From a virus (taxonomy: Duplodnaviria > Heunggongvirae > Uroviricota > Caudoviricetes): a stretch of DNA of 64,000 nucleotides. The stretch is from IMG/VR virus record IMGVR_UViG_3300045988_154997, positions 32,001 to 96,000 of that record; one strand, given 5' to 3'. A model generated the notes under the pieces. That model was given only the letters and a program-made list of their open reading frames with translations, was not told where the DNA came from and did no database searches. Shown one piece after another: positions 28,169 to 45,333 of the stretch (positions are counted from its first letter, which is position 1; each line of letters opens with the position of its first letter). The position numbers were made by a program, and so were the translations under genes.

Positions 28169-28175
28169 TTACTCA

Positions 28176-28784
28176 TCAGTTATACAGATTTCTATTTATT
28201 ACCGGTACTCTGCCATTTACGCTAAAACTATGGCCGCCATTAAGTTGGTTTACGAATATCGAGCTAACAGTATTTCCATATGCCGCATATCCATAAACCA
28301 TTGTCATGGCCCCGCCCGGTACTGGAACCGCGAACACATTTGCATATGTTGGGATTATCGCTGGCGGGTAATCAAAAACATGCCCTCCAGAACTGTTCCA
28401 CTCCGTATTATTAAGAAAGGTAAATGAAAGTGGGATATTTGCCGTATTATAGATCTCCTCTCCTCGCGCATTGAAAAAACTCATGCCCCAAGTTTCTTTT
28501 TTGGCTATACCTTTCGAAAATACGTATATCGTGGCACTAGAATCGCTACCCTGACCTCCGAAACTGTAAATCACCTGGTTGTTACGCACTATTCTGTTGG
28601 CTATTAATGAAACAGCTTTCGAATAGGCAACAAAAATCATCGGTGAACGATCTGGAGATATTTGGGTGTTAAACTCTGTCCCGCCAGACAAAGAAACAAC
28701 CTGCTTTCTCTGAAAAACGATAGGAGACAAAGAAGGAGACATCCAGACCTTCCCGTCAGATCGATATATCTTGCTTCCGTACAT
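28176..28784 (-). CDS. tail fiber-associated protein (202 aa), possible distal adhesin part
   Basis: Gly/Ser/Asn-rich beta-type composition; start overlaps the upstream ORF stop by 1 nt, in the -1 frame. Confidence 0.4.
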   Translation of the reverse strand: MYGSKIYRSDGKVWMSPSLSPIVFQRKQVVSLSGGTEFNTQISPDRSPMIFVAYSKAVSLIANRIVRNNQVIYSFGGQGSDSSATIYVFSKGIAKKETWGMSFFNARGEEIYNTANIPLSFTFLNNTEWNSSGGHVFDYPPAIIPTYANVFAVPVPGGAMTMVYGYAAYGNTVSSIFVNQLNGGHSFSVNGRVPVINRNLYN

Positions 28785-29038
28785 TATTTTTGAAAAACCA
28801 ATATGTTTAAATTGCCACTAGCTCCAGACCATGAAATGGTATTTCCAGAAACCGTAAGACTTGTGTATTTCCCATTGGTTACGTCCATTATGTAATAGTC
28901 GATTCCCAATCCCGCCTCAACCTCATATGTTCTACTTCCTGAACCAGAGGGAGTAAAATAATCGAGGTAATAAACAGGGGCCAACGCATCGACCATCTCC
29001 TGTCTTGATGGCGACCAAACCTGTGCACCATAGCTCAT
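28784..29038 (-). CDS. tail fiber-associated protein (84 aa); possibly the N-terminal part of a frameshifted or split gene with 28176-28784
   Basis: TAATG junction; composition similar to the downstream ORF. Confidence 0.35.
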   Translation of the reverse strand: MSYGAQVWSPSRQEMVDALAPVYYLDYFTPSGSGSRTYEVEAGLGIDYYIMDVTNGKYTSLTVSGNTISWSGASGNLNILVFQK

Positions 29039-29098: not shown

Positions 29099-32000
29099 TT
29101 ATTCTTTAGGTGAATTTAACTTCGTTTCAAGCTCCTCAACCCTTTTGGTCAATTGCTGAATATGATGAATGAGTGGTACAACCAAACGCTCATACATCAC
29201 TCCTTCAGCGACCATACCATTTGAGGAAATATCTCCTGGAGAATCATTATTTGTTGGTTCACGCCAATGGACATATTGCGGGGCAATCTCACCAACCTCT
29301 TCAGCAATAAGGCCGTAATACCCCCAATCCTTTCGGTCACCTCGACAAATTGAACGATACCAAACAGGTCTTAATGACAAAAGTTCATCAGCATATCGAT
29401 CTTGTAATGTTTCAATATCCTTTTTATAGCGCCTTGAAGATGTTGAACGCCAAACTGTATTGATACCTGGGTTTGGATCAATGTACATATTGGCACCGCT
29501 AGTAGTTGTGCCAATATCCCATATAGCAAACCCTCCACTACCGCCTGATTTGACAACCAGTGTTTCAGCAATAATATCCAGGTTGCCACTATAGCCTGTC
29601 AGTGATGATCTGCTTGCATAGGAACTTAGAAGGTTTGTTACCTCTGTTTTCGTATAAGCATTAAGGTTAGCCGCAGTCAAAGTAATATCGGCAGAGCCAT
29701 CAAACGCCACACCAGCAATTTTCCTTGCTGTCTGCAATTTTGTGGCTGTTGCGGCATTACCAGTAGTATTCTGATTACCGGTTGTATTCACACCAGGGAT
29801 TGAATCCTTAGCGGTATATACCTGCGCCCACGCTGACCATGCCGCATCAGTGGTATCTCTTCTGGAGCGAATGAAAACCGGCGCATGTGCACCGCTCGTA
29901 CCACTCCAGCCAATAAGCAACTCGCCCTCACCAGCAGCACTCGCACCTTTCATGTGCAATACGTTGCCATACGTGGTCGGGTAGCTATTGTTGTACGCCT
30001 CGTACATTTGAATGCCAGCAGTACCTTGAGTAGAACCGCTTAAAGCCGTAACTCGACCACGAGAAACCAATGTATTAATATTGATATCACCTGAACCATC
30101 AAACTTAACACCATTGATGTTTCTCGCTGTTTGCAACTTCGTAGCTGTTGAAGCATTGCCATTCAAGCTACCATTTACGCCACCAGTAACATTTAGTCCA
30201 TTACCAATAGACACAACACCGCTGCTATTATTAATTATAATCGGTCGCAAACTGTTCCATGAACCTAACGTATCTCCTGATGCTGTTAGCATGAAATATG
30301 TGCTGCCGCCGTCATTACGGATAAAGAACCCGTAGTTACCGTAAGCAATGCGGAAACCATTTGCATATTTTGAAACGATCTCACCAGAAGACGTTAACCC
30401 TCCAGATAATGTGCCACCTGAAAGCGGTAATGCTCCTACATCAGAAGCTGTTGGTTTGTTTCTAGTGTTATAAGAACGACGCCAGCCTGGTGCATAATCA
30501 CTTCCATTGTACACATAAATAAATTCCGCATTGTTAACACCACCATGACCCGATGTTGTTGTCGTTGTAACACGAATAGTGTAGTGGCTTGTTGCCTTAT
30601 TACTAAACACCTCAATCACGGAACCAGATAGATCGATCCTACCGCAACCAGTGTCGTCTATATAATTATTGTTGGCGTAAGTCCATGAGCACCGTGCGAT
30701 CCAATGTTTGTTTGTAAATGCCCCCTGATTATTTAGCCAAGTTATAAATTGAGCAGTCGTAAATGCCGTTCCGTTACCACTATTTAACCATCCAGCGGCA
30801 GCGGTTGGCGCGTTTATATCAGCCGGCTGAGGCATAAATCCAGTCGTGTAAACCTGCTCCCAACCACTTTCAAAACCATAGCCATCTCTTGAGGAACGGT
30901 AGAACAGACCACCATTTTTATAGTGAGCTTTAATTTGAAGCGTACGGCAACTACCTACACCGGTATAAAAGTTGGCAAGAATATAACTGTCGCCTGTTCT
31001 AGTTACATTGTAAGCACCAGATTCAGCATTCCACGGCACGCCACCATCAGCATCCGCATATGACCCTGTTGCCCTTCTTGCGAAAGCGGCAACATGCGCA
31101 GCGGTTAAAGTGATATCAGTAGAACCATCAAATGGAACACCGGATATTTTTCTTGCAGTCTGAAGTTTTGTAGCAGTTGCAGCATTACCAGTGGTGTTCT
31201 GATTACCCGTAGTGTTTACACCTGGAAGGTTGATATTTGCAGAACCGTCGAAACCAACTCCACCGATAGATCTTGCCGTCTGCAATTTCGTTGCTGTACT
31301 TGCATTACCATTTAATGTTCCGGTGATCCCACCAGTAACAGACAACGGACCTGAAACTGTTCCTCCGGTTGTTGGCAGTGCTCCAATATCTAACGGCGTC
31401 GGTTTCTGATGTGTGCTATACATCGTATAAACAACACCATCGGTAACGCTGGAAGGCTTACTCGCTGAATATGTTGGCGATGTATAAATAGAAACTGACG
31501 CATTTGCAGTACAATCCCAATGGATATTTACACTCGTCGCATAATTGCCAATTTCAACGTAAATATCATATGTATCGCCGGATGTGTTGATCCAGGCGAA
31601 ATTCGTTAATCCGACAGCTGTACGCTTCCACAAAGCACCTGTAATCCCTTTGGGGTTTCCATTGCCTGCTCGTAGAACCAGTTCTGAAATGCCTGCCTGA
31701 TGTGGGGAGCCGACGTTGTAACCAGCGCCACCAATCAATGCGATGTAAACGATGGAACTCGCTTGTGGCATTGTAACAGTAGCCAGTTTGAACCACCCGG
31801 CCCCGCCAGAGAAAGACATCGTTATTGAATTTAAAGTACCAATATCTTTCGGCGTTAATGTGATATCCGCAGTCAGTGCTTTCCCGTTAATTTTTCGGTT
31901 AGATGGCACCCTGCTGTTCGCATTGTCATTGACTACTTTAACTGCTTTTGGCGTTGCGGCCAGCGATTCACTGGTGCTGTCGACAGCACTGCTAAGTTTC

Positions 32001-33397
32001 ACAACACCTTTAGTTGTAAGGCTTGCGTCTTCCATCGCAACTGCACCGGCAATCTCTTCAGCACGATCAGCAGCAGCTTCCGCACGGGTCGCAGCGGATT
32101 CAGCAGCAGTTTTGCTCTGAGATGCTGCCGTCGCACTGCCTGCCGCCTCTGTTGCTTTCGTGGATGCCGTCGTGGCGCTGCCCTTCGCTGCTGACGCCTG
32201 TCTGGTCGCCTCATCTTTTGAAGCAGACGCAGATGATGCCGATGACGCCGCCGAACTGGCGGACGATGCGGCAGCCGTTTTTGAGGATTCTGCGCTGGTT
32301 TCCGACGCTTTCGCGTTCGTTTCGGATGTCTTCGCTGCGGAAGCAGACCTCGCTGCTGCGCTGGCCTGTTCAGTGGCTTCGCCAGCCTTCGTTGTGGCTG
32401 TTGAAGCAGACGATGCGGCACTTTCTGCCGATTTTCCGGCGGCGGTGGCACTGGCTGAGGCCTGCCCGGCACTTGTTGACGCGGCACTGGCAGACGACGC
32501 AGCCGCTGTTTTTGAGCCTGCCGCAGCCGAGGCGCTCTGTCCCGCTGCCGTTTCAGAAGACCTGGCGTTCGTCTCGGACGTTTTTGCCGCCTTCGCGGAA
32601 TTTCCTGCCGCCGTTGCCGAGGAAGCGGCATTACTGGCGCTCGAGGCTGCGCTCGTTTCTGATGATTTCGCTGCCTCTTTTGAGGCCGCCGCATCCCGGG
32701 CTGAGGTGGCAGCTTCTGACGCCTTCGTGGTCGCGGTGGATGCAGAAGTGGCTGCAGATTTTTGTGACGCTGCAGCATTCGTTTCAGACGTTTTCGCGGC
32801 ACCGGCACTGGTGGCCGCCGCGCTTTTTGAGGACTCTGCAGCGGATGCACTTTGAGACGCTTGAGAGGCTTTTTCTCCAGCGGTATTGGCGCTTTCTGCT
32901 GCTGCGGCAGCACTGGCCGCCGCCTCACGAGCTTTGTCGCCAGCAGCATCAATCGCGTCAGTGTTATTTTTATACCACTCAACGTTTTCGTTGTGCTCGT
33001 TGACGATCTGCATTAGCGGCTTAACGGTCACTTCTGTACCGTCTTCACGCTCGATTGTCACCTCATCCAGAGCAGTCAACCAACTGCGCATGGACTTGGA
33101 ATCAGCCGACATACGCGACATTAGTGCTGTAAAGCGCGCGCTAAACTGTGTTAAGTCGCCTTCATAGGTCGTAATGATTCGGCACGGAACTTCAGACTGA
33201 GTTTCGCCGGTATAAGGTTCTGAGAGAACAATGTTCGTATCACTGGTTACGCGCTTGATCTCATACAGCTTATTGTCGGGGCCAATGACGATCATCCCCG
33301 GCAACACACCATTAGCTGTTACGTTCCAGGCTGTCCCTGCCCCAACCAGAGTATTGCTGCCCTGTGTAAATGTGATAGTACCTTCCCTGTACCACAT
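29099..33397 (-). CDS. tail fiber protein (1432 aa) with Ala/Ser-rich repeat region, fibre repeats and C-terminal intramolecular-chaperone-like domain
   Basis: Repeated GN(A/S)ATATKLQTAR...GVxFDGSxDI fibre motifs; long AS-rich low-complexity segment; C-terminal DIETLQDRYADELLSLRPVWYRSI...GLIAEEV resembles self-cleaving chaperone domains of tail fibres/tailspikes. Confidence 0.8.
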   Translation of the reverse strand: MWYREGTITFTQGSNTLVGAGTAWNVTANGVLPGMIVIGPDNKLYEIKRVTSDTNIVLSEPYTGETQSEVPCRIITTYEGDLTQFSARFTALMSRMSADSKSMRSWLTALDEVTIEREDGTEVTVKPLMQIVNEHNENVEWYKNNTDAIDAAGDKAREAAASAAAAAESANTAGEKASQASQSASAAESSKSAAATSAGAAKTSETNAAASQKSAATSASTATTKASEAATSARDAAASKEAAKSSETSAASSASNAASSATAAGNSAKAAKTSETNARSSETAAGQSASAAAGSKTAAASSASAASTSAGQASASATAAGKSAESAASSASTATTKAGEATEQASAAARSASAAKTSETNAKASETSAESSKTAAASSASSAASSASSASASKDEATRQASAAKGSATTASTKATEAAGSATAASQSKTAAESAATRAEAAADRAEEIAGAVAMEDASLTTKGVVKLSSAVDSTSESLAATPKAVKVVNDNANSRVPSNRKINGKALTADITLTPKDIGTLNSITMSFSGGAGWFKLATVTMPQASSIVYIALIGGAGYNVGSPHQAGISELVLRAGNGNPKGITGALWKRTAVGLTNFAWINTSGDTYDIYVEIGNYATSVNIHWDCTANASVSIYTSPTYSASKPSSVTDGVVYTMYSTHQKPTPLDIGALPTTGGTVSGPLSVTGGITGTLNGNASTATKLQTARSIGGVGFDGSANINLPGVNTTGNQNTTGNAATATKLQTARKISGVPFDGSTDITLTAAHVAAFARRATGSYADADGGVPWNAESGAYNVTRTGDSYILANFYTGVGSCRTLQIKAHYKNGGLFYRSSRDGYGFESGWEQVYTTGFMPQPADINAPTAAAGWLNSGNGTAFTTAQFITWLNNQGAFTNKHWIARCSWTYANNNYIDDTGCGRIDLSGSVIEVFSNKATSHYTIRVTTTTTSGHGGVNNAEFIYVYNGSDYAPGWRRSYNTRNKPTASDVGALPLSGGTLSGGLTSSGEIVSKYANGFRIAYGNYGFFIRNDGGSTYFMLTASGDTLGSWNSLRPIIINNSSGVVSIGNGLNVTGGVNGSLNGNASTATKLQTARNINGVKFDGSGDININTLVSRGRVTALSGSTQGTAGIQMYEAYNNSYPTTYGNVLHMKGASAAGEGELLIGWSGTSGAHAPVFIRSRRDTTDAAWSAWAQVYTAKDSIPGVNTTGNQNTTGNAATATKLQTARKIAGVAFDGSADITLTAANLNAYTKTEVTNLLSSYASRSSLTGYSGNLDIIAETLVVKSGGSGGFAIWDIGTTTSGANMYIDPNPGINTVWRSTSSRRYKKDIETLQDRYADELLSLRPVWYRSICRGDRKDWGYYGLIAEEVGEIAPQYVHWREPTNNDSPGDISSNGMVAEGVMYERLVVPLIHHIQQLTKRVEELETKLNSPKE

Positions 33398-33489: not shown

Positions 33490-36400
33490 TTACAGAAGGC
33501 CAATTCTTACTCGTAGGACGTTGTTATCGTCATAAACGTCAATCCGCTGACCATTTATGACCAGTCGCCCATTACCCCCGCTATTACCGTTGATCTCAAG
33601 CGTTCCATTTTTGCCGAACCGCCATCCAGATCTACCGCTAACAAAATTGGTAGATTGCAGATCGCCTACTTTTGCATTGGTGATTGTGCCATCCTTGATA
33701 TACGCACCATTCATATAGGCGATACTGTTTTCGATAACAAATGGCGTGGTGATCTTCCCGTTAACAGAGTTGACCAAACCAAACCTGTCAGCCTGCACCA
33801 AAAACTGAGAAAGGCCAGTGGTGTCGATACCAAGCGCAATACCAGCAACATACTTCTGCCCTCCGCTCGTTGAAGTTTCCATTTTCAACGTCCACGCGGT
33901 TGACACTTTTTTGTTGGTATCAGCAATAGCTGTTGCCTGCTGTTGAATTGTCGCGGTATTTCCATCCACCTCTGCTTTCAGAGTATCGATTCGCCCACTC
34001 AGAGCATTATCTGCCTGCGTTCTCGCTGTCGTTTCAGTTGTTACCGCCGCGGAAATGTTGGCTGCCGTTTGAGACTCTAAGTTTGTGATTTGAGTCGCCA
34101 ATGCAGCATCTTGCTCTGTACGCGTTTTCGTTTCGGTTGCTACAGCCGCTTTAATATCCTCTTTGTATTGAGAGGTCAGCTTGGTGATCTGAGACGACAA
34201 CGCCGAGTCAGCATCAGTTCGAGCCTGCGTTTCAACTGCAACGGCCGCACTAATATCTTTCGCTGTCTGTGCTTTTAAACTTGAAACCTCTTTTGTTAAA
34301 GCGGTATCACCATCAGCACGAGCCGTTGTTTCTCTGGCAAGAGATGCCTCGAGATCATTAGCTTTTGCTGTAAGAGACGAAATCTGAGTGGACAATGCAC
34401 TATCGGCATCAGTCCTTGCCTTTGTCTCTACAGCAACCGCTGCGGCAATATCAGTTCCGGTTTGTGCTCGCAGGCTGTTAATTTCTCGTGAGAGCGCCTG
34501 GTCAGCACTTGCTCTGGCCTCCTGCTCCTGAGTGATGGCAGCGGATATATCACCGTCAACCTTTGACTGAAGCTGGTTTATTTGTTTGGCTAACGCAGAG
34601 TCCCCGCTTGCTCGGGCCTCCTGCTCACTACGTATTGCAGCAGAAATATCATCATCAACCTTTGCCTGAAGTTGGGTGATCTGGCTTGCCAGAGCCGAAT
34701 CTTCCGTTGCTCGGGCTTCTTGCTCTTCCTTAATAGCTGCGACGATATCGTTGCTTACTTTCGACTCAAGCTGAGTGATCTGTGTCGTCAGAGCTTCATC
34801 GGCAGATGTGCGAGCCTCCTGCTCTGTACTAATCGCCGCGCTGATATCTCCTTCAAACTTAGATTGCAGCTGAGTGACACGCTTTGCCAACGCTTCATCG
34901 CCATCGGCACGAGCGGTGGACTCTTCCAGAATACTGGCCTTAATGTCTTCGCCAATTTCTACGCGAATTTCCTCAACCTTCGTGGCCATTGCAGACATAT
35001 CATCAGCAAAGGTTTTCTGTGTTGTTGCGATCTTCGCGTTATTGACCATCTGCTTGTGCTGGTCTTCATCTTGACGAAGAGCCAGGTCAATATTTGTTTT
35101 GGCTAACGCCTCAATGTTCGTAGTCAGTTCTGCACTGGCACGATCGACCTCTGCAACCGTCTTTTTCATTTCTTCAACGGCAGCGGAGCTTTCCTCTACC
35201 GTTGACTGCAACACTTCCAGTTGTTTAGCGTTTGCAGCATCGCCTTCAACACGAGCCTCGCTTTCCTTAGCAATAAGAGCCGCCGCTTCATCTCTTGCAG
35301 CCTTTATTGCCTCGACTGTATTAGCGAGAGCTTTATCGTGTTCAGATACGGTGTTTTCGATTTCAACAATTGCAGCATCAGTAGCATCAATTTTTTCAAA
35401 CGCTTCATTGACCTTGTCGATCGTTGCCGAAACCTCACCTTTAAGCTCGGTTTGTGCGTTCTCCAAAGCATCGCTACGCTCGTTGAATTTTATTTCAAAA
35501 CCCGCGAGGTTATCGCTGAACTGCTTATCTAATTCAGCTATATCTTCCTTAACGTCGTTTACCGACCCCTCCAAAGATTCGACGCTCTGGTTGATATGCT
35601 CATTTAACTCGTCAACTGCTTCTTGAGAGGCTTTGCTGTTGATGTCCTCAAGCAGAGCCTGACCAAGCTCGGAAGATGTAATTTTGCCAGCCAGGAACGA
35701 CAGTACATCGCGAGTTGTCGCCTCTGTACCCAAGTTTGAGTTCGGAGGGCTTAACATACCTCGCTTGTTCGATGCTCGAACCCAGTAATACCACGTTTCG
35801 CTATCCCCAAGACCAGCATGTGTAAAGGTGGTGCTTGCAGACTCTGCGATCAGTTTCGCCGTATCCAGATTGTTGGTCTGGGATGCGTAAACATTAATGT
35901 GATCAAGGTCTACCGAATCTGGATTAACCCAATTCAGTATCACATTACGATAGTCTCCAACGGCCGTTAATGACGTTGGTGCATCCGGCGGTGTCATTGT
36001 GCCCAGCACCTGATAAACGGTACTGATAATTTCTGTTTTTTTACCGTTGAATGAAACCGCATACAGTTGGAAGTCGTAGCGTCCATTCTCCGCGACATTA
36101 ACGATTTCGTATTGCTCTTCGGTTACACGCGCCGATTGCCAGTTCGATACATTGTTTTCATCAGAACGTCGCCAACTGATCCAATACTCTGGAGATTTCC
36201 CTTCCCATGTTGCAGTCAGTTTTACTGACAGGTTGCCCGGGCTTGAGAGGTAAGTCCCTTCAGTGATTTGCAAATTAGACGGCTTGGAGTAAGTCGGGTC
36301 CAATACCGTCGTATTCTGCGGGATAAGCGTTGCACCATTGTCGATCGCCTCATATTTAGACGGATTGTTTTCAACAGCGGTGATGTCAAAGCTACCCGAC

Positions 36401-38220
36401 GTTTCCCCCTGAGCGATGTTAACGATGCGAACGCGCATAGGTTCGAGATCTGGTTCTGTAATTGTCCAGACACCGTTCAAAACAGGCGTTTCCGCTGACG
36501 ACAGAGCTTTTGAAAACGTAACCTTTGTTATGTTTTCGCCAGTTTCAAGAACATCGCGCTCAACGATTTTGCCTTCCTGATTCAATATCCGAATAAAGCT
36601 GCCGCTTTTAGCTAACGACACAGGCGCATCGAGAGTGATGCTGTTTTTGGTAAACTCCACAATTCGACCGGAGTTACGTTTACCTGCACGATATTTGTTC
36701 TGAATCAGAACGGTTTCACCGGGCATCAGAAATGAGGCGTCTAAGCCGGCAGTAAATGTAATTACATCCGACTCCATTCTGGCGGTATACAAAAGCCACA
36801 AACCAACTCGGTGAGCCTGGCCTCGGCTTGTACATCCAAATGCTACGACTTCTGTTTTACGCTCACCATAACGGCGCATTGCGTCCTGATCTTCAACGTA
36901 CTCGATATTTTGCTTATAACCGTCCTCCTTGTTGTTGTAGGTTACGAGCGCAACGGATGGGCGATCTTTACGCGCAGAACCTTTATAGGTAAACAGTCCA
37001 TCTTTGACGTTGGAGTTGGTAAACATCATTACCGGATCTGATGGGCTATCCTGCATGATGTTAACCATGCCACCAGCCCAAAACACCATGCCGCGGAATG
37101 CACCGGCAATATCCTGAATTAATCGGTATGCGTCTTGTCGACTGGTGATCTGCGTATTGATTGCAAAGCGTTTCTCTTTACCCCCAAAGCCATCATCGAC
37201 CTCTTCGTCACAATATCGACCAATCTGGTAGAGCTGGCCGAGGTCAATCATGGATTCCGACACAAATTGCCCAAGACCATACCGAGTATTGGTAAGCAAA
37301 TCGTAGAGAATCCACGCAGGGTTTGAAGAAGACAACAGCTTAAAAGTACCGTCCCATACGCCGACATAAGTATTGGTGTATTCGTTGTAGTTTGACGGTA
37401 CTCGGATTTTGATACCGCGCACCAAATACGAACGGGAAGGCATTGTGCTACCAAACTGCTCTGAATTGACCTTCAAGCCAACAAGAGCAGAGTTAGGGTA
37501 GTTCATTGGCGTGTCGACAATCTCACCGATGGAATCAACCCATGTGTCGTTGTAGAGGTACTGGCTACTGTTATCATCTGTAAGACGAATCACCCTAACC
37601 TTGTATGCACGACCAGGCTTAGGTAGTTTCAGCTCATAGCTACGGTAATACACGCCTGTTTTCTTTGCCGTTAGCGTGATATCAACGCTTTTCTCACCTT
37701 CTGCCACCACATCAGAAAATGTTGCGTCTCCGTTGGCGATCTGGAATTTGTACTTCACCGTAGTGCCATTTGTATCGCCAGAGCTTTTATCAACGCTACG
37801 TAAAGAGGGGAATTTCATGATGACACGAACGCGATCAGCTTCATCGTTATCGATTGAAACCGTAACGTCGTGTGTTTTTTTAAGCTGAATATTTACGGAC
37901 TTAGGCGTTTCAACAAAATCAAAACCAGCCATTGGCGTCTGGTCTTGTGAGCCGTCACGAAAATCCCATGTAATACCGCTGAAGTTGGAAGAGCCATCTT
38001 CATTCAAGATCGGTAAATCGTCGATGAAGATCGACTTTGCGCCATTTACCAGGCCACCGATAACCCCCTCGCCAAGAAGGTCGAGGATGGCTGCCATAGC
38101 ACGAGAATTGACAGTATCATCAGCTTCAACCGGGGTACGGCTGGAGCTTTTACTTTTCTTGCCACCAGCACCGGCAATAAGAAGCGGTAATTTTTTCTTC
38201 TTGAACTGTTCCATGTCCAA
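33490..38220 (-). CDS. central tail fibre / host specificity protein (lambda J-like) with extended coiled-coil repeat region
   Basis: 1576 aa; N-terminal two-thirds read as J-like with fibronectin-III-type segments; about 11 tandem 28-aa repeats (EQEARASGDSALAKQINQLQSKVDGDISAAI-like); sits downstream of gpI/K/L/M homologues. Confidence 0.8.
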   Translation of the reverse strand: MDMEQFKKKKLPLLIAGAGGKKSKSSSRTPVEADDTVNSRAMAAILDLLGEGVIGGLVNGAKSIFIDDLPILNEDGSSNFSGITWDFRDGSQDQTPMAGFDFVETPKSVNIQLKKTHDVTVSIDNDEADRVRVIMKFPSLRSVDKSSGDTNGTTVKYKFQIANGDATFSDVVAEGEKSVDITLTAKKTGVYYRSYELKLPKPGRAYKVRVIRLTDDNSSQYLYNDTWVDSIGEIVDTPMNYPNSALVGLKVNSEQFGSTMPSRSYLVRGIKIRVPSNYNEYTNTYVGVWDGTFKLLSSSNPAWILYDLLTNTRYGLGQFVSESMIDLGQLYQIGRYCDEEVDDGFGGKEKRFAINTQITSRQDAYRLIQDIAGAFRGMVFWAGGMVNIMQDSPSDPVMMFTNSNVKDGLFTYKGSARKDRPSVALVTYNNKEDGYKQNIEYVEDQDAMRRYGERKTEVVAFGCTSRGQAHRVGLWLLYTARMESDVITFTAGLDASFLMPGETVLIQNKYRAGKRNSGRIVEFTKNSITLDAPVSLAKSGSFIRILNQEGKIVERDVLETGENITKVTFSKALSSAETPVLNGVWTITEPDLEPMRVRIVNIAQGETSGSFDITAVENNPSKYEAIDNGATLIPQNTTVLDPTYSKPSNLQITEGTYLSSPGNLSVKLTATWEGKSPEYWISWRRSDENNVSNWQSARVTEEQYEIVNVAENGRYDFQLYAVSFNGKKTEIISTVYQVLGTMTPPDAPTSLTAVGDYRNVILNWVNPDSVDLDHINVYASQTNNLDTAKLIAESASTTFTHAGLGDSETWYYWVRASNKRGMLSPPNSNLGTEATTRDVLSFLAGKITSSELGQALLEDINSKASQEAVDELNEHINQSVESLEGSVNDVKEDIAELDKQFSDNLAGFEIKFNERSDALENAQTELKGEVSATIDKVNEAFEKIDATDAAIVEIENTVSEHDKALANTVEAIKAARDEAAALIAKESEARVEGDAANAKQLEVLQSTVEESSAAVEEMKKTVAEVDRASAELTTNIEALAKTNIDLALRQDEDQHKQMVNNAKIATTQKTFADDMSAMATKVEEIRVEIGEDIKASILEESTARADGDEALAKRVTQLQSKFEGDISAAISTEQEARTSADEALTTQITQLESKVSNDIVAAIKEEQEARATEDSALASQITQLQAKVDDDISAAIRSEQEARASGDSALAKQINQLQSKVDGDISAAITQEQEARASADQALSREINSLRAQTGTDIAAAVAVETKARTDADSALSTQISSLTAKANDLEASLARETTARADGDTALTKEVSSLKAQTAKDISAAVAVETQARTDADSALSSQITKLTSQYKEDIKAAVATETKTRTEQDAALATQITNLESQTAANISAAVTTETTARTQADNALSGRIDTLKAEVDGNTATIQQQATAIADTNKKVSTAWTLKMETSTSGGQKYVAGIALGIDTTGLSQFLVQADRFGLVNSVNGKITTPFVIENSIAYMNGAYIKDGTITNAKVGDLQSTNFVSGRSGWRFGKNGTLEINGNSGGNGRLVINGQRIDVYDDNNVLRVRIGLL
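33990..35000 (-). repeat. tandem roughly 84-bp coding repeats inside the J-like gene (boundaries approximate)
   Basis: Protein-level periodicity of about 28 aa; generates shadow ORFs on the plus strand. Confidence 0.55.
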
Positions 38221-38231
38221 AAAATCCTTGA

Positions 38232-38822
38232 TTACATAAGCTGGTCGATGGTGATAGAAGAACTCACGACCTGTGAGCCAACTAAAATTTCCTCGCCATA
38301 GATAAGCTGTACAGGGTTCCCCTGGTTTGTTGTGTTTTGAGGTCCATCAAAGTAATAAGAGTTCGAGTTATCCGCCTGCCTCACACTTTCGTTAGTGGCT
38401 TGCGGAGATATGATTTGCGCTATACCGCCCATCATCAGTGACAAACCGAGAGGCGCAAGAGCGGGCACCCATATCGAGGCAACCATTAATACTGCTCCAA
38501 CAACCGTCTGAAACCATCCAAAAGCAGATCCACCACTTCCTCGCGGAACAGGGGTAATGCGGATTTTTGCAATATTGTCAGACTGCCCCATCATCTGATA
38601 TTCACTCTCGTCCACAGACCACTTGTGGCCCTGTTTATTGGTGATCTGGATGTGGTATCTGTCATAGGTTTTGATATTGCGCTTCATCCATGCTTTAAAC
38701 CCAGGCTTGTTGGCCTCAATTAAATCCAGAGCCTGTTTTGTATTACGCACCTTTAGATGCCAGTGGCGGCCAAAATGTTTGGCCATAGGGCCTCCAAGCT
38801 GCACATGAACTAACTCAGACAC
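38232..38822 (-). CDS. tail assembly protein, lambda gpI-like
   Basis: 196 aa with hydrophobic segment FQTVVGAVLMVASIWVPALAPLGLSLMMGGIAQI; position between K and J homologues. Confidence 0.65.
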   Translation of the reverse strand: MSELVHVQLGGPMAKHFGRHWHLKVRNTKQALDLIEANKPGFKAWMKRNIKTYDRYHIQITNKQGHKWSVDESEYQMMGQSDNIAKIRITPVPRGSGGSAFGWFQTVVGAVLMVASIWVPALAPLGLSLMMGGIAQIISPQATNESVRQADNSNSYYFDGPQNTTNQGNPVQLIYGEEILVGSQVVSSSITIDQLM

Positions 38823-39634
38823 GTCTCATCTCCCTTGAGCAAGTCTCTGTGACGCAAGTGATGCGTCGTATGTTTCTGATACATTCCGCCGTAATAAGCA
38901 CGACAACTTAGGCGGTCGATCTGGTGATGAAGAATCATTCCATCGCCGATATAAACCGCGCAGTGGTCAGGCATTTTCCCGTATTGGATAAAGAATACGT
39001 CCCCACGTTGAGGCTCTGTTCCGGGCGCAAGACGCACCAATCCCTCGTTACGGTAGTTCTGATCGAGAATGTCGTTATCGCCGGTGTACCACGATGGAAT
39101 ATGCAGGTGTGCGTTCGGGTTTAGTTCGACGTTAAACTCACGCTTCAAATAGTCCCGACACAACATCCAGCAATCAAATACGCCAAATACATACGGTCTG
39201 CCCAGGTATGGCATTTCGAAACCATCAGGTGTGATCACATTCATCTCGCTAAAATGGAAAGGGGCATCTCCCTCAACATTCTTGCGAATAGCCAGAATCA
39301 TCCACGGAACTTCCGTCGTTTCGCAGCCTGCACGATCGGCATAAGATGCTTCTGCTGATTCATCAGTATGTGAATGCCAGATTGCGATAACATCACCCGC
39401 ATCCTCTGCCGCCATAATGTCGTCAACGTGCATTACAAAAGTGTTCTGCGGGTTCTCCGAAACATTCCGCGCTTCCATAAAGCGATATTTGTCGCCATTA
39501 GTTCTAACCAGAAAGCCACACGCTTCATTAGGGTAGCGATTTATGGCGCAGAGATAGATTTGCTGCATAACGTCAGAGCCAAGCTCAGGGATTGCTTTAT
39601 TACCCATACCGCGTAGCTCCAATAAATCCGCCAA
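38810..39634 (-). CDS. tail assembly protein, lambda gpK-like (JAB/MPN plus NlpC/P60 domains)
   Basis: JAMM-like IAIWHSHTDESAEAS and a Cys/His hydrolase-like C-terminal half (CWMLCRDY ... DHCAVYIGDG). Confidence 0.75.
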   Translation of the reverse strand: MADLLELRGMGNKAIPELGSDVMQQIYLCAINRYPNEACGFLVRTNGDKYRFMEARNVSENPQNTFVMHVDDIMAAEDAGDVIAIWHSHTDESAEASYADRAGCETTEVPWMILAIRKNVEGDAPFHFSEMNVITPDGFEMPYLGRPYVFGVFDCWMLCRDYLKREFNVELNPNAHLHIPSWYTGDNDILDQNYRNEGLVRLAPGTEPQRGDVFFIQYGKMPDHCAVYIGDGMILHHQIDRLSCRAYYGGMYQKHTTHHLRHRDLLKGDETCLS

Positions 39635-40331
39635 AATGGATCACACCGTCGGCAAAATAATTCCGACGCGCATTACAGGCGTCATAACGTTTTGTGCAGT
39701 AATCCGCACCAGACATAGACGTCTGCTGGTTATTTTTGTCGAAATATGGACCGGTATAGCCGCATTCTGGCCCTCGGTATTTCCACGGGCAGGTGTTTTT
39801 AATGATCTGACGATACGGCAGTTGCACCCCCATCAAATCGAACACACTGGACAATTCAAACTCGACAACCTGATGAGTTTCGAGAGTTTTCTGTTCGATA
39901 AACCACATTTCATCCGGGAAATGTTGGTTTGGATCTGCTGTTGGGTTGCCGTCTTTAAAATTAACGGCATCGAGGAAGCGAGCCAGCGTCATCTTGCGAA
40001 TAATGCGGCAGCCAACAAGATCGTCGTTCGCCTGAACTTCCGCAGAGACGGTTCCGGCAAAGTTCGATACCTGAATTTTTGGACGAGGCAACGTTCCCTG
40101 GCCCGTTTTGTCAAAGCCTGATGCTTTTATTGGCCACGGCTCGTATGTCACTCCTTGCCAGACGACCGGTTGCATCAGTTCGTTTGTTCCGGCGTGGAAG
40201 AATAGCTTCCCCCCTGAAGTTGTGTTCGACATATCCAGTACGAACAACTCAATGAGTGCAGAGGGAGATAAGCTCTGAATATCAGCTTTAATTCCCATTG
40301 TTTCATCCTTGAAATAAGTAGGCGCTAACAT
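39600..40331 (-). CDS. minor tail protein, lambda gpL-like
   Basis: C-terminal Cys cluster CPWKYRGPECGYTGPYF ... CTKRYDAC; position between M and K homologues. Confidence 0.7.
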   Translation of the reverse strand: MLAPTYFKDETMGIKADIQSLSPSALIELFVLDMSNTTSGGKLFFHAGTNELMQPVVWQGVTYEPWPIKASGFDKTGQGTLPRPKIQVSNFAGTVSAEVQANDDLVGCRIIRKMTLARFLDAVNFKDGNPTADPNQHFPDEMWFIEQKTLETHQVVEFELSSVFDLMGVQLPYRQIIKNTCPWKYRGPECGYTGPYFDKNNQQTSMSGADYCTKRYDACNARRNYFADGVIHFGGFIGATRYG

Positions 40332-40380
40332 CCTGTCAGCGCCACAATGATAGTAAATTAGTACTTACTTATCCAGATAC

Positions 40381-40716
40381 TTAAGCCTCAAATACTTGTC
40401 TGAATGTAGCAGTTAAGACACAGTACCCCTGATATCGCTTGACCGTATGACTGTCACATACAACTACAATCTGCTTGCCTCTTGGATTAACCCAATAGAA
40501 CGATTCAACGCCTGATCGCTCAGTCAGGAAGTCATCGATTGCATTAATTTCGTTGTATGATCTGGTAAAGGTTAACGACCATTCTTCTTTAATACGATTA
40601 AGACCTTGAGCCTGTCGCTGCTCGTAGTCATCACCAAAATTAAGTACCGTTACATTCGGTTTTACGCTTTTTTCAGATTCGTAATCTGGATACCAATTAA
40701 ACGTTTGTCTTTCCAT
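40381..40716 (-). CDS. minor tail protein, lambda gpM-like
   Basis: 111 aa, immediately downstream of the tape measure gene. Confidence 0.6.
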   Translation of the reverse strand: MERQTFNWYPDYESEKSVKPNVTVLNFGDDYEQRQAQGLNRIKEEWSLTFTRSYNEINAIDDFLTERSGVESFYWVNPRGKQIVVVCDSHTVKRYQGYCVLTATFRQVFEA

Positions 40717-40758
40717 CTCACATCCTTGTGAGACTGCCCCGGTCGGGGCAGTCGATAG

Positions 40759-43700
40759 TTAGTTACGTTGAGTGTTTGGGTTGAGTGATCCGCCAGGGCG
40801 TTTCTCTTGAGCAATAGTCTCAAGCGCGATTGCTTTCATCCGTTGAGCGGCATTGTTCCATATGCTTTCTGTATCGCCGGATTCAGTTGTGCTACCGTCA
40901 CTATGGACGTTGATCTCAATTGATACCGGAGAAAGAACATTTCCTCCTCCACTCATACCATCGGTACTGAGCGTTACAGGGATTGTTCGGCCATCAGGCA
41001 ATGGAACATACGCCTCATTCATAGAACCTTCCCCAAACAACGCTAATTGAGGCGAGTTAGCAATACCGCCTTTCTGGTATGCCCGGAGCGGGATCACGCC
41101 GTCTTTTCCGAATATTCCTCCATTTGCAAACTTCGGGATTGCAGGAATGCCTTTAGTTCCGTCAGCCACACTGCTGGTTGCGGTTTTAGCAGAGCTTGAT
41201 GTCACGCTGTCGAAACCACCGCCAGCCCAAGCTGAAACAAGACCAGATGCAACCGTTGCTCCAAAACTCAACCACTTATTACCAGAGCCGGAAGCATTAG
41301 CTCCAAGCATTGCAAACGCGGCAGACAGCGCGCCGGTAACAGAGCTTAGGTTCTGCATCGAGAAGATGGAGTCCTTCACTGCTTTTGTCTCAGCATCTTT
41401 GGCTTCAGTGCTATCAAATAGCCCTGATACCCAGCTACCAATCGCATTTGTTGCAGTGCCAATTGCGCTGGTGGTCTGCTGTGTTGTTTGCCCCAATCCA
41501 GTTACCGAACTGGACGTCTCCTTCGTGGCTTCTCCTACTGACTTGTCGCCGTTAACAGTGTTACCCATTCGTACACCTTGATTGGCAACGGCGGAAGCAA
41601 CCCCGGTCAGCAAATTACCACTCTGTGAACTACCAGCTGCGGTGGTTCCCATCCCCAACATGTTCATTAGAGGCAGCGTGATCTGCGACTTCACGACCAT
41701 ATTGGTGATATCTTTCAAAATGGACTGAGATAGGCTGGAGAAGCTCATCTTCCCGTTAATAACGAAATCAGTCAGGGCATCAGTTAAGCCACTAAACAAA
41801 TCAGTCCAGGTGTTTTCGATCTGCTCTGCCAGATTTTCGTATTCCAGTGCCAACTTCTGCGTCGCAGTCCCCGTCTCTTTAATGAGCGCGGTATTTCCAG
41901 CGGCAATAAGTTGATTGATTTTCTTAGTATAAAGCGCCACGACTTTAGGATCAGACGCCTTATCACGAAGTTCTATCAACGCTTTAAGATTACGGTTGTA
42001 GGTGCCTTCGAAATCAGCAACTTTATCTTCGCGAGACGGCGTATAGCCAGCACTAATAATGGAATCCGCCTCCGGTGCCCAAGTGGAGATCATCTGCTCA
42101 ACATTGCGGCGATTAAACATCTCGCGATATTCAGGTGTCGCATTTTTGAGGTCTTCAAGACGTTTTTTCGCCTTGTCGATCATCTCTTGAGTGATGAACT
42201 CGTTAGGAACCGCATTAGCCAAATCTGTCAGCGATTTCGTTGTATCGCGAAGAGACTGATCAAACGATACCGTAGCCTTAGAGCTTTCACCCATTTGCCC
42301 CATAAGCTGATCGGCTTTGTCCAGAGCCTTCTGGTATCCGGCTGCCAGTTTCTGTTGCGCTGCCTGTTCCTTCTTGGCCGCACGCTGCGAGGCGTTAGCT
42401 GATCGTTGGGCTGCTTTCTCGGCAGCTGCTGCATCCTGTTCACGAGCTTTAGTCAGTGCAGCAATGGCTGCGGCACGCTCTTCATCGCTCATTTTCTCCA
42501 GAGAGCTGGCGCTGGATGCTTTCTGCAAATTAAGCTGCGTCTTGAGTTGTTTAGGCCCAATAATCGGCTTACCTTCGAAGTCCATCATCGGAGTGCCGTC
42601 AGGCAAAGTACGTTGATAAGTCGCAGAATCCATCTGGTTTCGCATATATTGCGCCAGCGCCTTCTGAGCTGCTTTATCAGTTGTACCTAACCCAAGAACA
42701 GTCCCCTGGTTTGACATTACGCCCTTACCAGTTTTGGCCGCGTTATCTCTCTCGAACTCTGCCTGAGTCAGCTCCTGAGCAACGGCTTCCAAATGCTCCT
42801 GATAACCACGAATACTGCCTTGCAGTTTCTGGATCTGCTCGGTATTTCCATCCTTTTTGGCTTTTTCAAGCTGATCATTAAGAGTCGCGATTTGCTTCTC
42901 GGTCGCATTCTTACGAGAAGAAAGTGAATCAACCAGTTTTTGCGCAGGCTCCAGATAGCTTTTGTTTACCGTTTCACGTAACGGTGCCAATAGCTTGTTC
43001 TTTTCGTCATCTGAAAGTGAACCGTCATCATTGATTTTCTGGATCTTATCCAGAGCCTCCTGCCGGGCTTTCACGAATGTTGCCGCGAAAATCTGGTTTT
43101 CCGCTCGAATTTTCTCAATCTGAGATTCGGCAGCCTCTTTAGCCAAACGCTTTGCTACAGCGCCGTCACCAAGAGCTATCGTGCCGGTTATCTTTTGATA
43201 CTCTTCCTGATTTTTTTTCAGGCGTGCTTCGATGTCAGCCTTCGACTCTTTGTGAGTAATAACACCGGCAGAGTTAGATACGTAATTAACGCCCTCACCA
43301 TTTTTTAATGCTCGTTGATCAGCGAGAATCTGCTTTTCGAGCTTTTCTGCGCGATCGGCCATCTGTGCTCGTTTGGCCGCTGTCATCGCCTCTGGTATTT
43401 TCCTAATCTCGTCAACGACCTTTGAAGTTTCGCTGCGGAGCATGGTCATGTACGTGATTAGGCCAGCAACAGCTACAGTGGCAACTGTAAATGCTGCCCC
43501 TATAGGGTTTGCTGCAATGAACGCCGTTAATCCCGCAAAAGCGCCTTTAAGCCCCGTAATCGCCCCACGGATGGCGAAAATAAGAGAGGGAATCGGAGCC
43601 AGCCCCATACGTGCCGCACGATTGAATCGAGTTACTGCTGTAGCACCGAGATTAAATGGAGTCTGTATGGCGGTCGCCATCGTGGCAAAGGTGCTAACCA

Positions 43701-45333
43701 TCTGGCTCCCAGCGCCAACTACCCCCATGATCCCTGCTCGCATCAGTTTGAACGCAACCATCGCGGCCACGACCTTACCGAGATTAATTACCAGCTCTTG
43801 GTTCTTTGCTAACCATTGAGCAAGCTGACGCAACCCATCGATTGCCGTTGTTAACCCCGAACCTAAAGAATTGGCAAACGAAATCCCTTCGGCGCTATTC
43901 ATGATTGAAGCCAGTTCTTTCATCCCCTTCGATAGAGAATCCAGATATCCGGCCTGACCAACCCGATCAGCAAATAACGTGAATGACGTCTGAAGTTGCG
44001 CCAGCGCACCTGTGTAGGTTTGCATCATGTCTTTCGCTGCGTTCTCATTCTCCGCACGCAGACCAACAAACATCAGAGACAACGCCTGTTTTGCCTCAAC
44101 CGTACCGCTGGCAACGGCTTTAGTCAGTTCCCCCATAGTGATGCCTGCGGCGTCTGCCATTGCCTGCATCGCGTTAGGAACGGCTTCACCTAATTGCTGA
44201 CGTAGCTCTTCCATTGACACAACGCCCTTACCGGACATCTGCTGAACGGCCACAGCCGCACGTTTCAACAGCTCACTATCACCACCAAAACGAGCAACGG
44301 AGTCCACCAGCGCCTTCAGAGAACCATCGGTTGGATCTAAGCCAGCAGAACGAAACTTCACGAAGGAGTCTGTTAACGCCTGCATCGCGAACGGCGCATT
44401 TTGAGCCATGTCTACGATGTACCTCATATCATCAGCGGCAGCCTGGCCCGGGTTGGACTTCTCCTTATTCAACCCTCGAAGCATCACCCGCATACGTTCC
44501 ATTTCGGCCGCAGCTTCAACAATAGGCTTCTGCCACCCAAACATGATGTCAGTAACCGTTCTGGCTGCATCTCCGATCTCGCCAAGCAGGAAAATGTTGC
44601 CACGAAGGCCAGAGAACATACCTCCTTCGTTACTTTTACCGCTATGGCCAGAAGCGCCGCTACGCCGCCCGCTACCACCATCGCCACTTCCAGATGTACG
44701 AACGCGTACCGGCTTGCTAATCAGTTGCTGACGTCCGATAACTTCGTCCATCTGCTCACGAACCTTTTTCAGTCCCTCGGCAGCCTGACTCGTTGTGACA
44801 CCCCAATTACTGAGTCGCTTCGTCGTGGTATTAAGGCGCGTATTCATGCCACTCACGGACGCAGAGGCTTCTTTGACCTCCGTACCAAAGCGGCTTGCGC
44901 TTTTGCTTGCATAGGTCGCCCAATCAGAGAAATCATTTAGCTCTGATTGCACTTTACGTAATGACGCGGTGAGTTTATCTACTGAAGAAGTTGTCGTATC
45001 GACGCGCTCAATCAGGGCTTTAAGACCAGAATTGAGGCTGGTGATGTTGCCACGCATTTTACGCGTAGCATCTGAAGCAAGCTCAAAACCGGCAGCTACA
45101 TCCTGTAGTTTATCTGCCGTAGAATCGAGCTTGCTTTCCAGAACGCCAATGATACGGGCGACCGAACCCAAAGAGCGTTCAAAGGTTTGGATTTTTTGAG
45201 CAGGCTTTGTTACCTGCTCACCAAATCGAGTAAGCAGTTTCCCCGCACGATCGATTGACGCTGTAAACTGTTTGTCTTCCAGCGACAGGATAAACTCTAC
45301 GTTTTGTGACATTCCCTTGTCATCCTCTGCCAA
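40759..45333 (-). CDS. tail tape measure protein
   Basis: 1524 aa, alpha-helical, Ala/Gly-rich with hydrophobic segments; follows the G/T chaperone pair. Confidence 0.85.
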   Translation of the reverse strand: MAEDDKGMSQNVEFILSLEDKQFTASIDRAGKLLTRFGEQVTKPAQKIQTFERSLGSVARIIGVLESKLDSTADKLQDVAAGFELASDATRKMRGNITSLNSGLKALIERVDTTTSSVDKLTASLRKVQSELNDFSDWATYASKSASRFGTEVKEASASVSGMNTRLNTTTKRLSNWGVTTSQAAEGLKKVREQMDEVIGRQQLISKPVRVRTSGSGDGGSGRRSGASGHSGKSNEGGMFSGLRGNIFLLGEIGDAARTVTDIMFGWQKPIVEAAAEMERMRVMLRGLNKEKSNPGQAAADDMRYIVDMAQNAPFAMQALTDSFVKFRSAGLDPTDGSLKALVDSVARFGGDSELLKRAAVAVQQMSGKGVVSMEELRQQLGEAVPNAMQAMADAAGITMGELTKAVASGTVEAKQALSLMFVGLRAENENAAKDMMQTYTGALAQLQTSFTLFADRVGQAGYLDSLSKGMKELASIMNSAEGISFANSLGSGLTTAIDGLRQLAQWLAKNQELVINLGKVVAAMVAFKLMRAGIMGVVGAGSQMVSTFATMATAIQTPFNLGATAVTRFNRAARMGLAPIPSLIFAIRGAITGLKGAFAGLTAFIAANPIGAAFTVATVAVAGLITYMTMLRSETSKVVDEIRKIPEAMTAAKRAQMADRAEKLEKQILADQRALKNGEGVNYVSNSAGVITHKESKADIEARLKKNQEEYQKITGTIALGDGAVAKRLAKEAAESQIEKIRAENQIFAATFVKARQEALDKIQKINDDGSLSDDEKNKLLAPLRETVNKSYLEPAQKLVDSLSSRKNATEKQIATLNDQLEKAKKDGNTEQIQKLQGSIRGYQEHLEAVAQELTQAEFERDNAAKTGKGVMSNQGTVLGLGTTDKAAQKALAQYMRNQMDSATYQRTLPDGTPMMDFEGKPIIGPKQLKTQLNLQKASSASSLEKMSDEERAAAIAALTKAREQDAAAAEKAAQRSANASQRAAKKEQAAQQKLAAGYQKALDKADQLMGQMGESSKATVSFDQSLRDTTKSLTDLANAVPNEFITQEMIDKAKKRLEDLKNATPEYREMFNRRNVEQMISTWAPEADSIISAGYTPSREDKVADFEGTYNRNLKALIELRDKASDPKVVALYTKKINQLIAAGNTALIKETGTATQKLALEYENLAEQIENTWTDLFSGLTDALTDFVINGKMSFSSLSQSILKDITNMVVKSQITLPLMNMLGMGTTAAGSSQSGNLLTGVASAVANQGVRMGNTVNGDKSVGEATKETSSSVTGLGQTTQQTTSAIGTATNAIGSWVSGLFDSTEAKDAETKAVKDSIFSMQNLSSVTGALSAAFAMLGANASGSGNKWLSFGATVASGLVSAWAGGGFDSVTSSSAKTATSSVADGTKGIPAIPKFANGGIFGKDGVIPLRAYQKGGIANSPQLALFGEGSMNEAYVPLPDGRTIPVTLSTDGMSGGGNVLSPVSIEINVHSDGSTTESGDTESIWNNAAQRMKAIALETIAQEKRPGGSLNPNTQRN

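Follow-up and report, generated by a model that had tools for sequence, protein, structure and literature searches.

Ten tandem 33-residue units bearing a fold-switch motif in the central tail fibre of an SSU5-like phage-plasmid, a candidate helix-to-sheet spring

The window analysed here, a stretch of 64,000 nucleotides (nt) at positions 32,001 to 96,000 of the IMG/VR record IMGVR_UViG_3300045988_154997 (Caudoviricetes), is an SSU5-like phage-plasmid of Escherichia coli, and the subject of this report is its central tail fibre gene, whose shaft is built in large part from a tandem array of 33-residue units. As the first-pass annotation had noted, a single open reading frame (ORF) of 1576 amino acids (aa) occupies 33490..38220 on the minus strand, running from a TTG at 38220 to the stop codon at 33490-33492. 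The TTG of this mechanically called ORF lies 12 nt past the stop of the gpI-like gene, and near-identical genes in RefSeq and ENA start two codons further in, at the ATG at 38214, which is probably the true start. Pfam matches were obtained to FNIII-A_GpJ (aa 103-237, 1.1e-29), Phage-tail_3 (359-522, 7.5e-34), fn3 (746-825) and Phage_Tail_Tip (PF09327, formerly DUF1983; 1424-1558, E 1.2e-41), while PHROG returned 'central tail fiber J'. Because of these matches and the gene order M-L-K-I-J, the product is a lambda-J-type (TipJ) central tail fibre or tip attachment protein, in agreement with the initial assignment, which had also put the length of lambda J (1132 aa) closely, at about 1130 aa.

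The fibre protein itself is already known and annotated, and the class of fold-switching fibres is likewise known. Its gene is 100% identical in DNA to a copy on plasmid NZ_CP104116.1, and matches to it occur in 228 of 5426 complete E. coli genomes (about 4%), all of them on plasmids. Cyrano, a phage-plasmid of strain LF82, encodes a 97.5% identical protein with ten units (CYRAN_20, 'tail host specificity protein J'), the SSU5 homologue (SSU5_020, gp20; 1385 aa) is covered by the fibre protein at 74% identity, and orthologues on E. coli plasmids are annotated as 'TipJ family phage tail tip protein'. Repeats are not mentioned in the annotations of the SSU5, Cyrano and E. coli plasmid records that we saw.

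Comparison with lambda divides the protein into four parts, all encoded on the minus strand. The hub and fibronectin type III (FNIII) domains (aa 1-835; 35716..38220), delimited by Pfam and alignment, are common to lambda J: aa 22-862 align with residues 3-837 of lambda gpJ (PDB 8iyk_J; phmmer E 1e-127), and this part also aligns with residues 9-770 of the F2 pyocin fibre. At the opposite end, the C-terminal tip domain (aa 1429-1576; 33493..33936) is a Phage_Tail_Tip domain, the beta-prism of the central straight fibre, with aa 1419-1548 aligning to lambda J 839-971, and it aligns in addition to T1 gp33 985-1167 and to the F2 pyocin fibre up to residue 1193. As aa 22-862 match lambda 3-837 and aa 1419-1548 match 839-971, about 556 aa are inserted at a single point in lambda, residue 837/839. 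The inserted shaft begins with a proximal helical segment (aa 836-1099; 34924..35715) that is heptad-like and opens with a conserved LSFLAGKITSSELGQALLEDI motif, which has a counterpart in lambda; a KITxSxLGxxLLE linker motif is likewise homologous between the two proteins. The remainder of the shaft is the ten-unit tandem array (aa 1100-1428; 33937..34923), defined by lag analysis, unit alignment and a predicted helix over aa 1233-1418.

No counterpart aligned to the immunoglobulin (Ig)-like receptor-binding domain of lambda J (about 972-1132; 160 aa), and the protein ends about 28 aa beyond the segment aligned to lambda 839-971. The T1 and F-pyocin fibres also lack this domain. The length in excess of lambda J had been attributed largely to repeats, which holds only in part: the array accounts for 329 aa of the inserted 593-aa shaft, and the 160-aa receptor-binding domain of lambda is missing as well, so that repeats alone do not account for the difference. 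Similarly, a distinct C-terminal domain does follow the repeats as described, but it is the conserved Phage_Tail_Tip beta-prism of lambda J 839-971 rather than a novel receptor domain. For annotation this means that the C-terminus is not a lambda-like receptor-binding domain and that receptor predictions transferred from lambda J would be wrong.

The periodicity of the array is evident at the protein level, where self-identity at lag 33 reaches 49% over aa 1090-1420, followed by lags 66 and 99, and no lag exceeds about 8% self-identity in the N-terminal 850 aa. A tandem repeat directly before the C-terminal domain is thus present as first described, with a period of 33 aa (99 nt). The 28-aa (four-heptad) period originally read from the sequence is incorrect, lag 28 falling outside the eight top lags, among which 33, 66 and 99 dominate. 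On DNA, Tandem Repeats Finder (TRF) reported the 99-nt period with only 2.2 copies because the units are merely 40-70% identical in DNA; this was insufficient, and the unit layout was read from the protein. Ten clear units span aa 1100-1428 (nt 33937-34923), with unit 6 being 32 aa, and each scores 42-61 bits against the unit profile. A weak eleventh profile match lies at aa 986-1014 (10 bits), and the proximal shaft carries motif traces, 15 and 17 aa apart, of another 2-4 decayed units at aa 949-1023 and 1077-1099, making the earlier count of about 11 copies a fair one. The unit consensus is E-x-x-A-R-x-x-x-D-x-A-L-x-x-x-I-x-x-L-x-S/A-x-x-x-x-D-I-x-A-A-I/V-x-x, in which E1, R5, D9, A11, L12 and L19 are invariant across the ten units and A4 and A29 are nearly so. 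The Pfam scan of the fibre protein identified no family for this unit. The description of the repeats as near-identical was overstated: because units share only 30-76% identity in protein, and in DNA the 40-70% given above, the array is an old one and does not stem from recent amplification.

Copy number was found to vary among related genomes and is thus not invariant, the outcome that would have spoken against the first-pass annotation. Strong units number 10, 9, 8, 7, 6, 5 or 4 in a set of 120 close homologues, whose protein lengths run from 1575 down to 1353 aa. More protein clusters have the 5-unit form of 1385-1386 aa than any other; it is that of SSU5 and most Escherichia relatives, in contrast to the ten units of the lineage studied here; further afield, gp19 of the Burkholderia phage KS9 has 7 units and a Vibrio phage 2-3. 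Six exact in-register differences of 33 or 66 aa were identified, involving five distinct variant proteins and occurring in three cases in proteins more than 99% identical to the fibre protein. One variant (P0003) is the fibre protein minus 66 aa, with one mosaic unit derived from units 2, 3 and 4; those of NZ_CP027358 and NZ_CP081707 each lack 33 aa, at the junction of units 3/4 and 4/5, with 12 and 6 other residue differences from the fibre protein, respectively; P0120 is P0029 minus 33 aa; and the protein of PhiR41_1 is that of CP054387 minus one unit (33 aa). Characterised phages are represented among these forms, with 5 units in SSU5, 9 in PhiR41_1 and 10 in Cyrano. Virions of Cyrano have been detected by quantitative PCR (PMC9928086), and SSU5 and PhiR41_1 are deposited as phages with laboratory host strains listed. 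A literature search on PhiR41 found nothing relevant.

Variation is concentrated in the shaft. Hub and tip are 91-97% identical to SSU5 or PhiR41_1 (hub 91% and tip 97% for SSU5), as against only 66-68% over the aligned residues of the shaft. The tip domain remains 93-99% identical across the 5-, 9- and 10-unit forms while the shaft changes length, so that repeat number is decoupled from the likely binding end.

Consistent with an elongated helical element, the entire shaft (aa 836-1428, 593 aa) contains no proline and only 15 glycines. Its two parts differ in periodicity: the proximal shaft has a single hydrophobic period of 3.56 residues (z about 6.5 versus shuffles) and no period-2 signal, whereas the unit has its strongest hydrophobic harmonic at 2.06 residues (P = 0.02 by column permutation). 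This signal is weak evidence for a sequence that is also required to work as strands. The proximal shaft is further marked by an atypical aromatic stretch at aa 901-917 and a non-repeat interruption at aa 1024-1076. AlphaFold2 (AF2) monomer predictions, whether from a 130-sequence alignment or from the single sequence, yielded one continuous helix over aa 1233-1418, with block-mean predicted local distance difference test (pLDDT) scores mostly above 90 and no kink within the ten regular units. The helical nature of the repeat region in the first-pass annotation is borne out by this prediction and by the homologous F-pyocin shaft, which was solved as a three-stranded coiled coil (PMC13455828; 10.64898/2026.02.24.707460). 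With the alignment, the tip domain was predicted as beta-rich at pLDDT mostly 81-97 from about aa 1471 (model residue 240). Foldseek searches with the helix-plus-tip model were informative only for the tip, for which the top matches were the SU10 tail tip fibre (7z4b_EA, E 1.5e-6) and lambda gpJ (8xcj, probability 1.0), the remaining matches being noise.

The F-type pyocin central fibre provides the framework for interpreting the unit. Its shaft has been solved as a trimeric coiled coil in three reports (PMC13455828; 10.64898/2026.02.24.707460; PMC12874032), and side fibres dock on this three-stranded coil (PMC13455828). According to a preprint on the F7 pyocin, a 163-residue coil becomes a triangular beta-prism on cell binding, with the tape measure protein ejected in the beta-prism state (PMC12874032). 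In that work each strand, read along the strand direction, carries the motif SxSxxMxxLxS; substitution of Gln at the corner (S) positions abolishes killing and ejection with assembly unaffected; and where an M residue is acidic, an Arg often lies four residues away as its partner (PMC12874032). A related change occurs in lambda J: when LamB is bound, residues 841-861 convert from a helix into a sheet and the length of the fibre falls from 29.7 to 13.2 nm (PMC11101478).

This fold-switch motif, a feature absent from the earlier reading of the locus, is present in the repeats. A forward SxSxxMxxLxS occupies unit positions 11-21 in all ten units (for example ALAKQINQLQS), and a reversed copy spans positions 29-33 and 1-6 of the next unit in nine of ten by strict scan (for example AAITQEQEARA), so that forward and reverse motifs alternate with spacings of 18 and 15 aa. 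The S positions are small (Ala, Ser or Thr) in 60 of 60 cases, the M positions are I/V16 and E1, the L positions are L19 and I/V/L31, and the Arg at R5 follows E1 by four residues in every unit. Sites rich in Gly, Asp and Asn fall at unit positions 7-10 and 22-28. Across the shaft, 20 forward and 14 reverse matches compare with about 4.7 of each in shuffled sequences (maximum 12).

Sequence homology extends into the array. With the C-terminal 741 aa as the query, residues 884-1193 of the F2 pyocin fibre (25vf_A) aligned with aa 1243-1548 (E 7.8e-25), and T1 gp33 matched at E 3e-29. To place the residues named in the preprint on unit positions, F2 residues were counted along the HMMER alignment. 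A987 and A995 coincide with the second and last S of the forward motif that begins at 985, V1010 falls on an S in the reverse motif 1002-1012, and A1017 is the first S of the next forward motif, whereas the neutral controls A998 and A1011 are off-motif. The F2 pair E1039-R1043, named in the preprint as a salt bridge buried in the F7 pyocin coiled coil (PMC12874032), aligns with E1396-R1400, which is the E1-R5 pair of unit 10, and the core residues L1050 and I1054 (10.64898/2026.02.24.707460) correspond to L12 and I16 of the unit. Because the preprint residues fall on motif positions, the six pyocin motif strands correspond to three 32-aa units at residues 985-1076, and one unit most likely represents one beta-hairpin of the alternative fold.

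The pyocin fibre (P. aeruginosa PA0641 / PyoF10; PDB 25vf, 25vj, 26ci) is accordingly among the closest known systems. It shares the J hub with FNIII domains, the helical shaft and the Phage_Tail_Tip beta-prism, along with the alternating SxSxxMxxLxS motifs, the Glu-Arg pair and the core Leu/Ile positions; like the fibre protein it has no lambda-type receptor-binding domain, and a side fibre gene adjoins. The two differ in that the pyocin has six motif strands (three 32-aa units), compared to ten well-kept 33-aa units plus decayed ones here, about three times the strands; in that the F-pyocin is a tailocin while the fibre protein belongs to a DNA-injecting phage-plasmid; and in that the fold switch is experimental in the F7 pyocin and proposed by homology for the fibre protein. 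The main text of the F7 preprint contains neither the word 'repeat' nor 'SSU5' nor 'phage-plasmid', and we found no mention of copy-number polymorphism there (PMC12874032).

Two other fibres frame the comparison. T1 gp33 (PDB 9l9p_S; PMC11945409) is of the J type, matches the tip (E 3e-29) and has 33-aa units of its own (REVIATETEALSREIDQLKAQIGDDIQASLTDI), although only about 3 in its 352-aa C-terminal part compared with ten in the fibre protein. Its C-terminus is longer than that of lambda, with a predicted protrusion of about 37 nm, and was unresolved by cryo-electron microscopy, the alpha/beta-helix fold having come from AlphaFold3 (AF3) only (PMC11945409). Lambda gpJ (PDB 8iyk, 8xcj, 8xck) shares the homologous hub, FNIII domains, linker motif and central straight fibre beta-prism as well as the M-L-K-I-J gene order, but has no units and possesses the LamB-binding Ig-like domain (972-1132) that is missing from the fibre protein.

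Different arrangements of the J C-terminus were also encountered. In the Escherichia phage mEp043 (PV340537.1), the C-terminal 400 aa of J contain, at the same shaft position, three identical tandem copies of a different 32-aa unit (ATARSLLSLQTDVNGNKASINSLNQTFSDYQQ), implying very recent amplification of that unit. In Klebsiella SSU5-like phage-plasmids, as seen in phage vB_KpnS_p4727 (PQ492289.1; locus 3501 onward), the J homologue is about 81% identical over the first 905 aa, after which an unrelated C-terminus of more than 1200 aa continues beyond the retrieved locus, with coiled segments alternating with globular modules and no 33-aa array; the site where the two sequences part, directly behind the FNIII domains, has the look of a module-swap point.

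Starting from the observed anatomy, repeat, motif mapping, helix prediction and copy-number polymorphism, we propose by homology to the F-pyocin fibre that the shaft is a metastable helix-to-sheet spring, a reading to which we assign roughly even chances and in which trimerisation, refolding and the effect of copy number are inferred. The shaft would be a trimeric coiled coil whose length, at 0.148 nm per residue, comes to about 88 nm, with the array contributing 49 nm; in a metastable state it would keep the tip domain about 90 nm away from the tail tip. Since neither 32 nor 33 is a multiple of 7, each unit introduces at least one heptad discontinuity, and such register discontinuities were termed a mechanical weak point in the pyocin study (10.64898/2026.02.24.707460). 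Each unit would correspond to one hairpin, with the Gly/Asp/Asn-rich sites as turns. Once the tip, or attached adhesins, touched the cell surface, the coil would convert to a triangular beta-prism. Conversion would start distally, where the first beta-strands of the tip domain would act as the seed; the sequence of this seed region is homologous to F2 1060-1120 and lambda 839-880. With each unit then taking up about 0.96 nm, the array would end at roughly 10 nm, and the shortening would pull the FNIII closure apart, open the tip and free the tape measure protein. The change at lambda residues 841-861 may then be regarded as a miniature version of the proposed refolding. Recombination between units would add and remove them in register, giving rise to related phage-plasmids with 4 to 10 units.

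Several points weigh against this proposal. Neither AF2 monomer run produced a beta-prism, both giving helix only, in a check that was weak in being confined to AF2 monomers; published predictions for F7-type fibres, either triple coiled coil or beta-prism, used AF3 and CF-random sampling (PMC12874032). Residues 1420-1452, where the non-switching seed strands are expected, are modelled at pLDDT below 50. Hendecad (3.67) periodicity of the unit, strong against simple shuffles, is not significant by the fairer column permutation (P = 0.21). The equivalence of F2 and F7 numbering is drawn from six named residues landing on matching residue types. The unit profile recognises only the last F-pyocin unit, the others having been mapped by motif and residue counting, and homology of the more proximal pyocin units would thus depend on motif spacing. 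Conservation across 1742 units from 264 diverse proteins is high (six S positions 94-100% small, E1 100%, R5 99%, D9 96%) but partly circular, as the units were collected with a profile built from the fibre protein; the diverse homologues came from a query with the KS9 gp19 C-terminus, a first search having given close Escherichia proteins only. Finally, experimental demonstration of the fold switch is confined to the F7 pyocin, as described in a preprint and for six strands (about three units) (PMC12874032), and complete refolding of a 20-strand array is a prediction by analogy.

The main rival to a refolding shaft is a static spacer, a permanent trimeric coiled coil in which copy number sets the reach of the tip, each unit adding about 4.9 nm, as might serve to cross O-antigen or capsule. 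The AF2 runs predicted helix as the sole state, copy number ranges freely from 4 to 10 with 5-, 9- and 10-unit forms in characterised phages, and the published description of T1 gp33 goes no further than a long, flexible extension of about 37 nm (PMC11945409), all of which such a rod would accommodate. A pure coil, however, leaves unexplained why six positions per unit, solvent-exposed in the F7 coil, are kept small (Ala/Ser/Thr/Gly/Val) in 60 of 60 cases here and in 94-100% of the 1742 units, and why turn-prone Gly/Asp/Asn sites recur at fixed positions; moreover, the homologous F7 segment refolds, and killing needs refolding (PMC12874032). We therefore regard a static shaft as possible but somewhat doubtful. 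A long shaft might instead serve mainly as a platform carrying the side tail fibres and possibly a terminal adhesin, with repeat number setting the spacing from dock to tip. In F-pyocins three side-fibre trimers bind a kink in the shaft, located at G955 in F2 (PMC13455828), and attach to the triple helix (10.64898/2026.02.24.707460); a 1432-aa side fibre gene lies directly downstream of the fibre gene, and the proximal shaft contains the aromatic stretch and non-repeat interruption noted above. Nevertheless, no dock site was identified in the fibre protein and the AF2 array is free of kinks. Docking is compatible with either a spring or a spacer and is no alternative to the spring; as the main function of the shaft we consider it unlikely.

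A role in host range, which the first-pass annotation had favoured in calling the array a plausible hotspot, would require that changes in repeat number alter the adsorbable hosts and be selected for doing so. Variation within the protein is indeed greatest in the shaft (66-68% identity and indels, versus 91-97% for hub and tip), copy-number changes recur, and Klebsiella relatives have everything after about aa 900 replaced. Yet the tip is 93-99% identical across the 5-, 9- and 10-unit forms even as the shaft changes in length and sequence, and E. coli plasmids whose fibre genes are more than 98% identical include both 9- and 10-unit forms. The hotspot proposal thus finds no support, and we consider it highly improbable; the side fibre and exchange of the entire C-terminus are more plausible carriers of specificity than repeat number.

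The surrounding genes conform to a lambda-like tail-tip module. Upstream of the fibre gene at 38232..45333, and in an order equal in Cyrano and SSU5, Pfam and PHROG (tail assembly protein) identified genes for a gpI-like protein (38232-38822), a gpK-like protein with JAB and NlpC/P60 domains (38810-39634), gpL (39600-40331), gpM (40381-40716) and the tape measure protein (40759-45333), all on the minus strand. Downstream at 29099..33397, also on the minus strand, is the side tail fibre gene (1432 aa), with Pfam matches to Gp34_trimer (T4 gp34 trimerisation) and the Peptidase_S74 intramolecular chaperone; its Cyrano counterpart is labelled tail fibre, and that of PhiR41_1 side tail fibre Stf. 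Because of the F-pyocin analogy (PMC13455828), this protein is the likely partner docking on the shaft. From about aa 150 to 470 the side fibre has a long Ala/Ser/Thr-rich stretch of low complexity (KTSETNA.., AAASSAS..), which yields spurious ORFs of 231-327 aa in other frames or on the opposite strand (for example plus strand 32023-33003 and 32160-32855) that are not genes.

Between the side fibre gene and the lysis genes sit three small minus-strand genes (27935-29038), encoding an 84-aa 'outer membrane protein' (28784-29038, phrog_557), a 202-aa membrane-associated moron (28176-28784, phrog_425) and, by PHROG, the 77-aa superinfection-exclusion protein Cor (27935-28168). Cor proteins block FhuA-dependent phages, and the presence of the gene hints that FhuA is the terminal receptor of this phage. 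Cyrano is without these three genes at the junction, its fibre gene being followed by the holin, whereas SSU5 has a Cor-like gene. Separately, the J gene is split by an insertion sequence (IS) in plasmids NZ_CP035843.1 (H104) and NZ_CP053233.1 (H119), one carrying an IS21-like (IS100 family) element and the other a member of the IS3 family, and these phage-plasmids are probably defective as phages.

A fibre built from repeats is not unusual, as the unit is widespread. Among clusters represented at 50% identity, the ten-unit profile matched 1255 at E <= 0.001 and 545 when the threshold was E <= 1e-10, with up to 26 matched stretches per protein; at a domain E-value of 0.01 there were up to 24 units per protein, typically spaced 32, 33, 36 or 39 aa apart. 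One of these proteins (P0241, 2138 aa) combines J hub and tip with 21 units. In those with the most units (P0243, P0253, P0247 and P0242; 20-24), phmmer with the fibre domains detected no J hub or tip, which suggests that fibre proteins of other kinds also employ the 32-39-aa unit.

The present analysis adds that the switch region can be read as a modular array of tandem hairpins whose copy number is naturally polymorphic in register. The locus bears on how long non-contractile tails obtain the energy for tip opening and outer-membrane crossing. It shows that the proposed switch region can be a regular tandem array, each unit providing a pair of motif strands, two sites for turns and a single Glu-Arg salt-bridge pair, whose length shifts in register among otherwise near-identical phage-plasmids. 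It is conceivable, and we suggest it only tentatively, that the spring of non-contractile tails is built from a modular 32-33-aa hairpin unit added or removed in register, with 20 strands in this E. coli lineage. The unit supplies a simple sequence rule for finding such fibres and a natural allelic series for how stroke or stored energy scales with unit number. If the spring reading is true, both the stroke (about 4 nm per unit) and the stored refolding energy would be tunable by copy number, and the natural series of 4, 5, 6, 7, 8, 9 and 10 units would provide a test of the amount of metastable coil required for tip opening.

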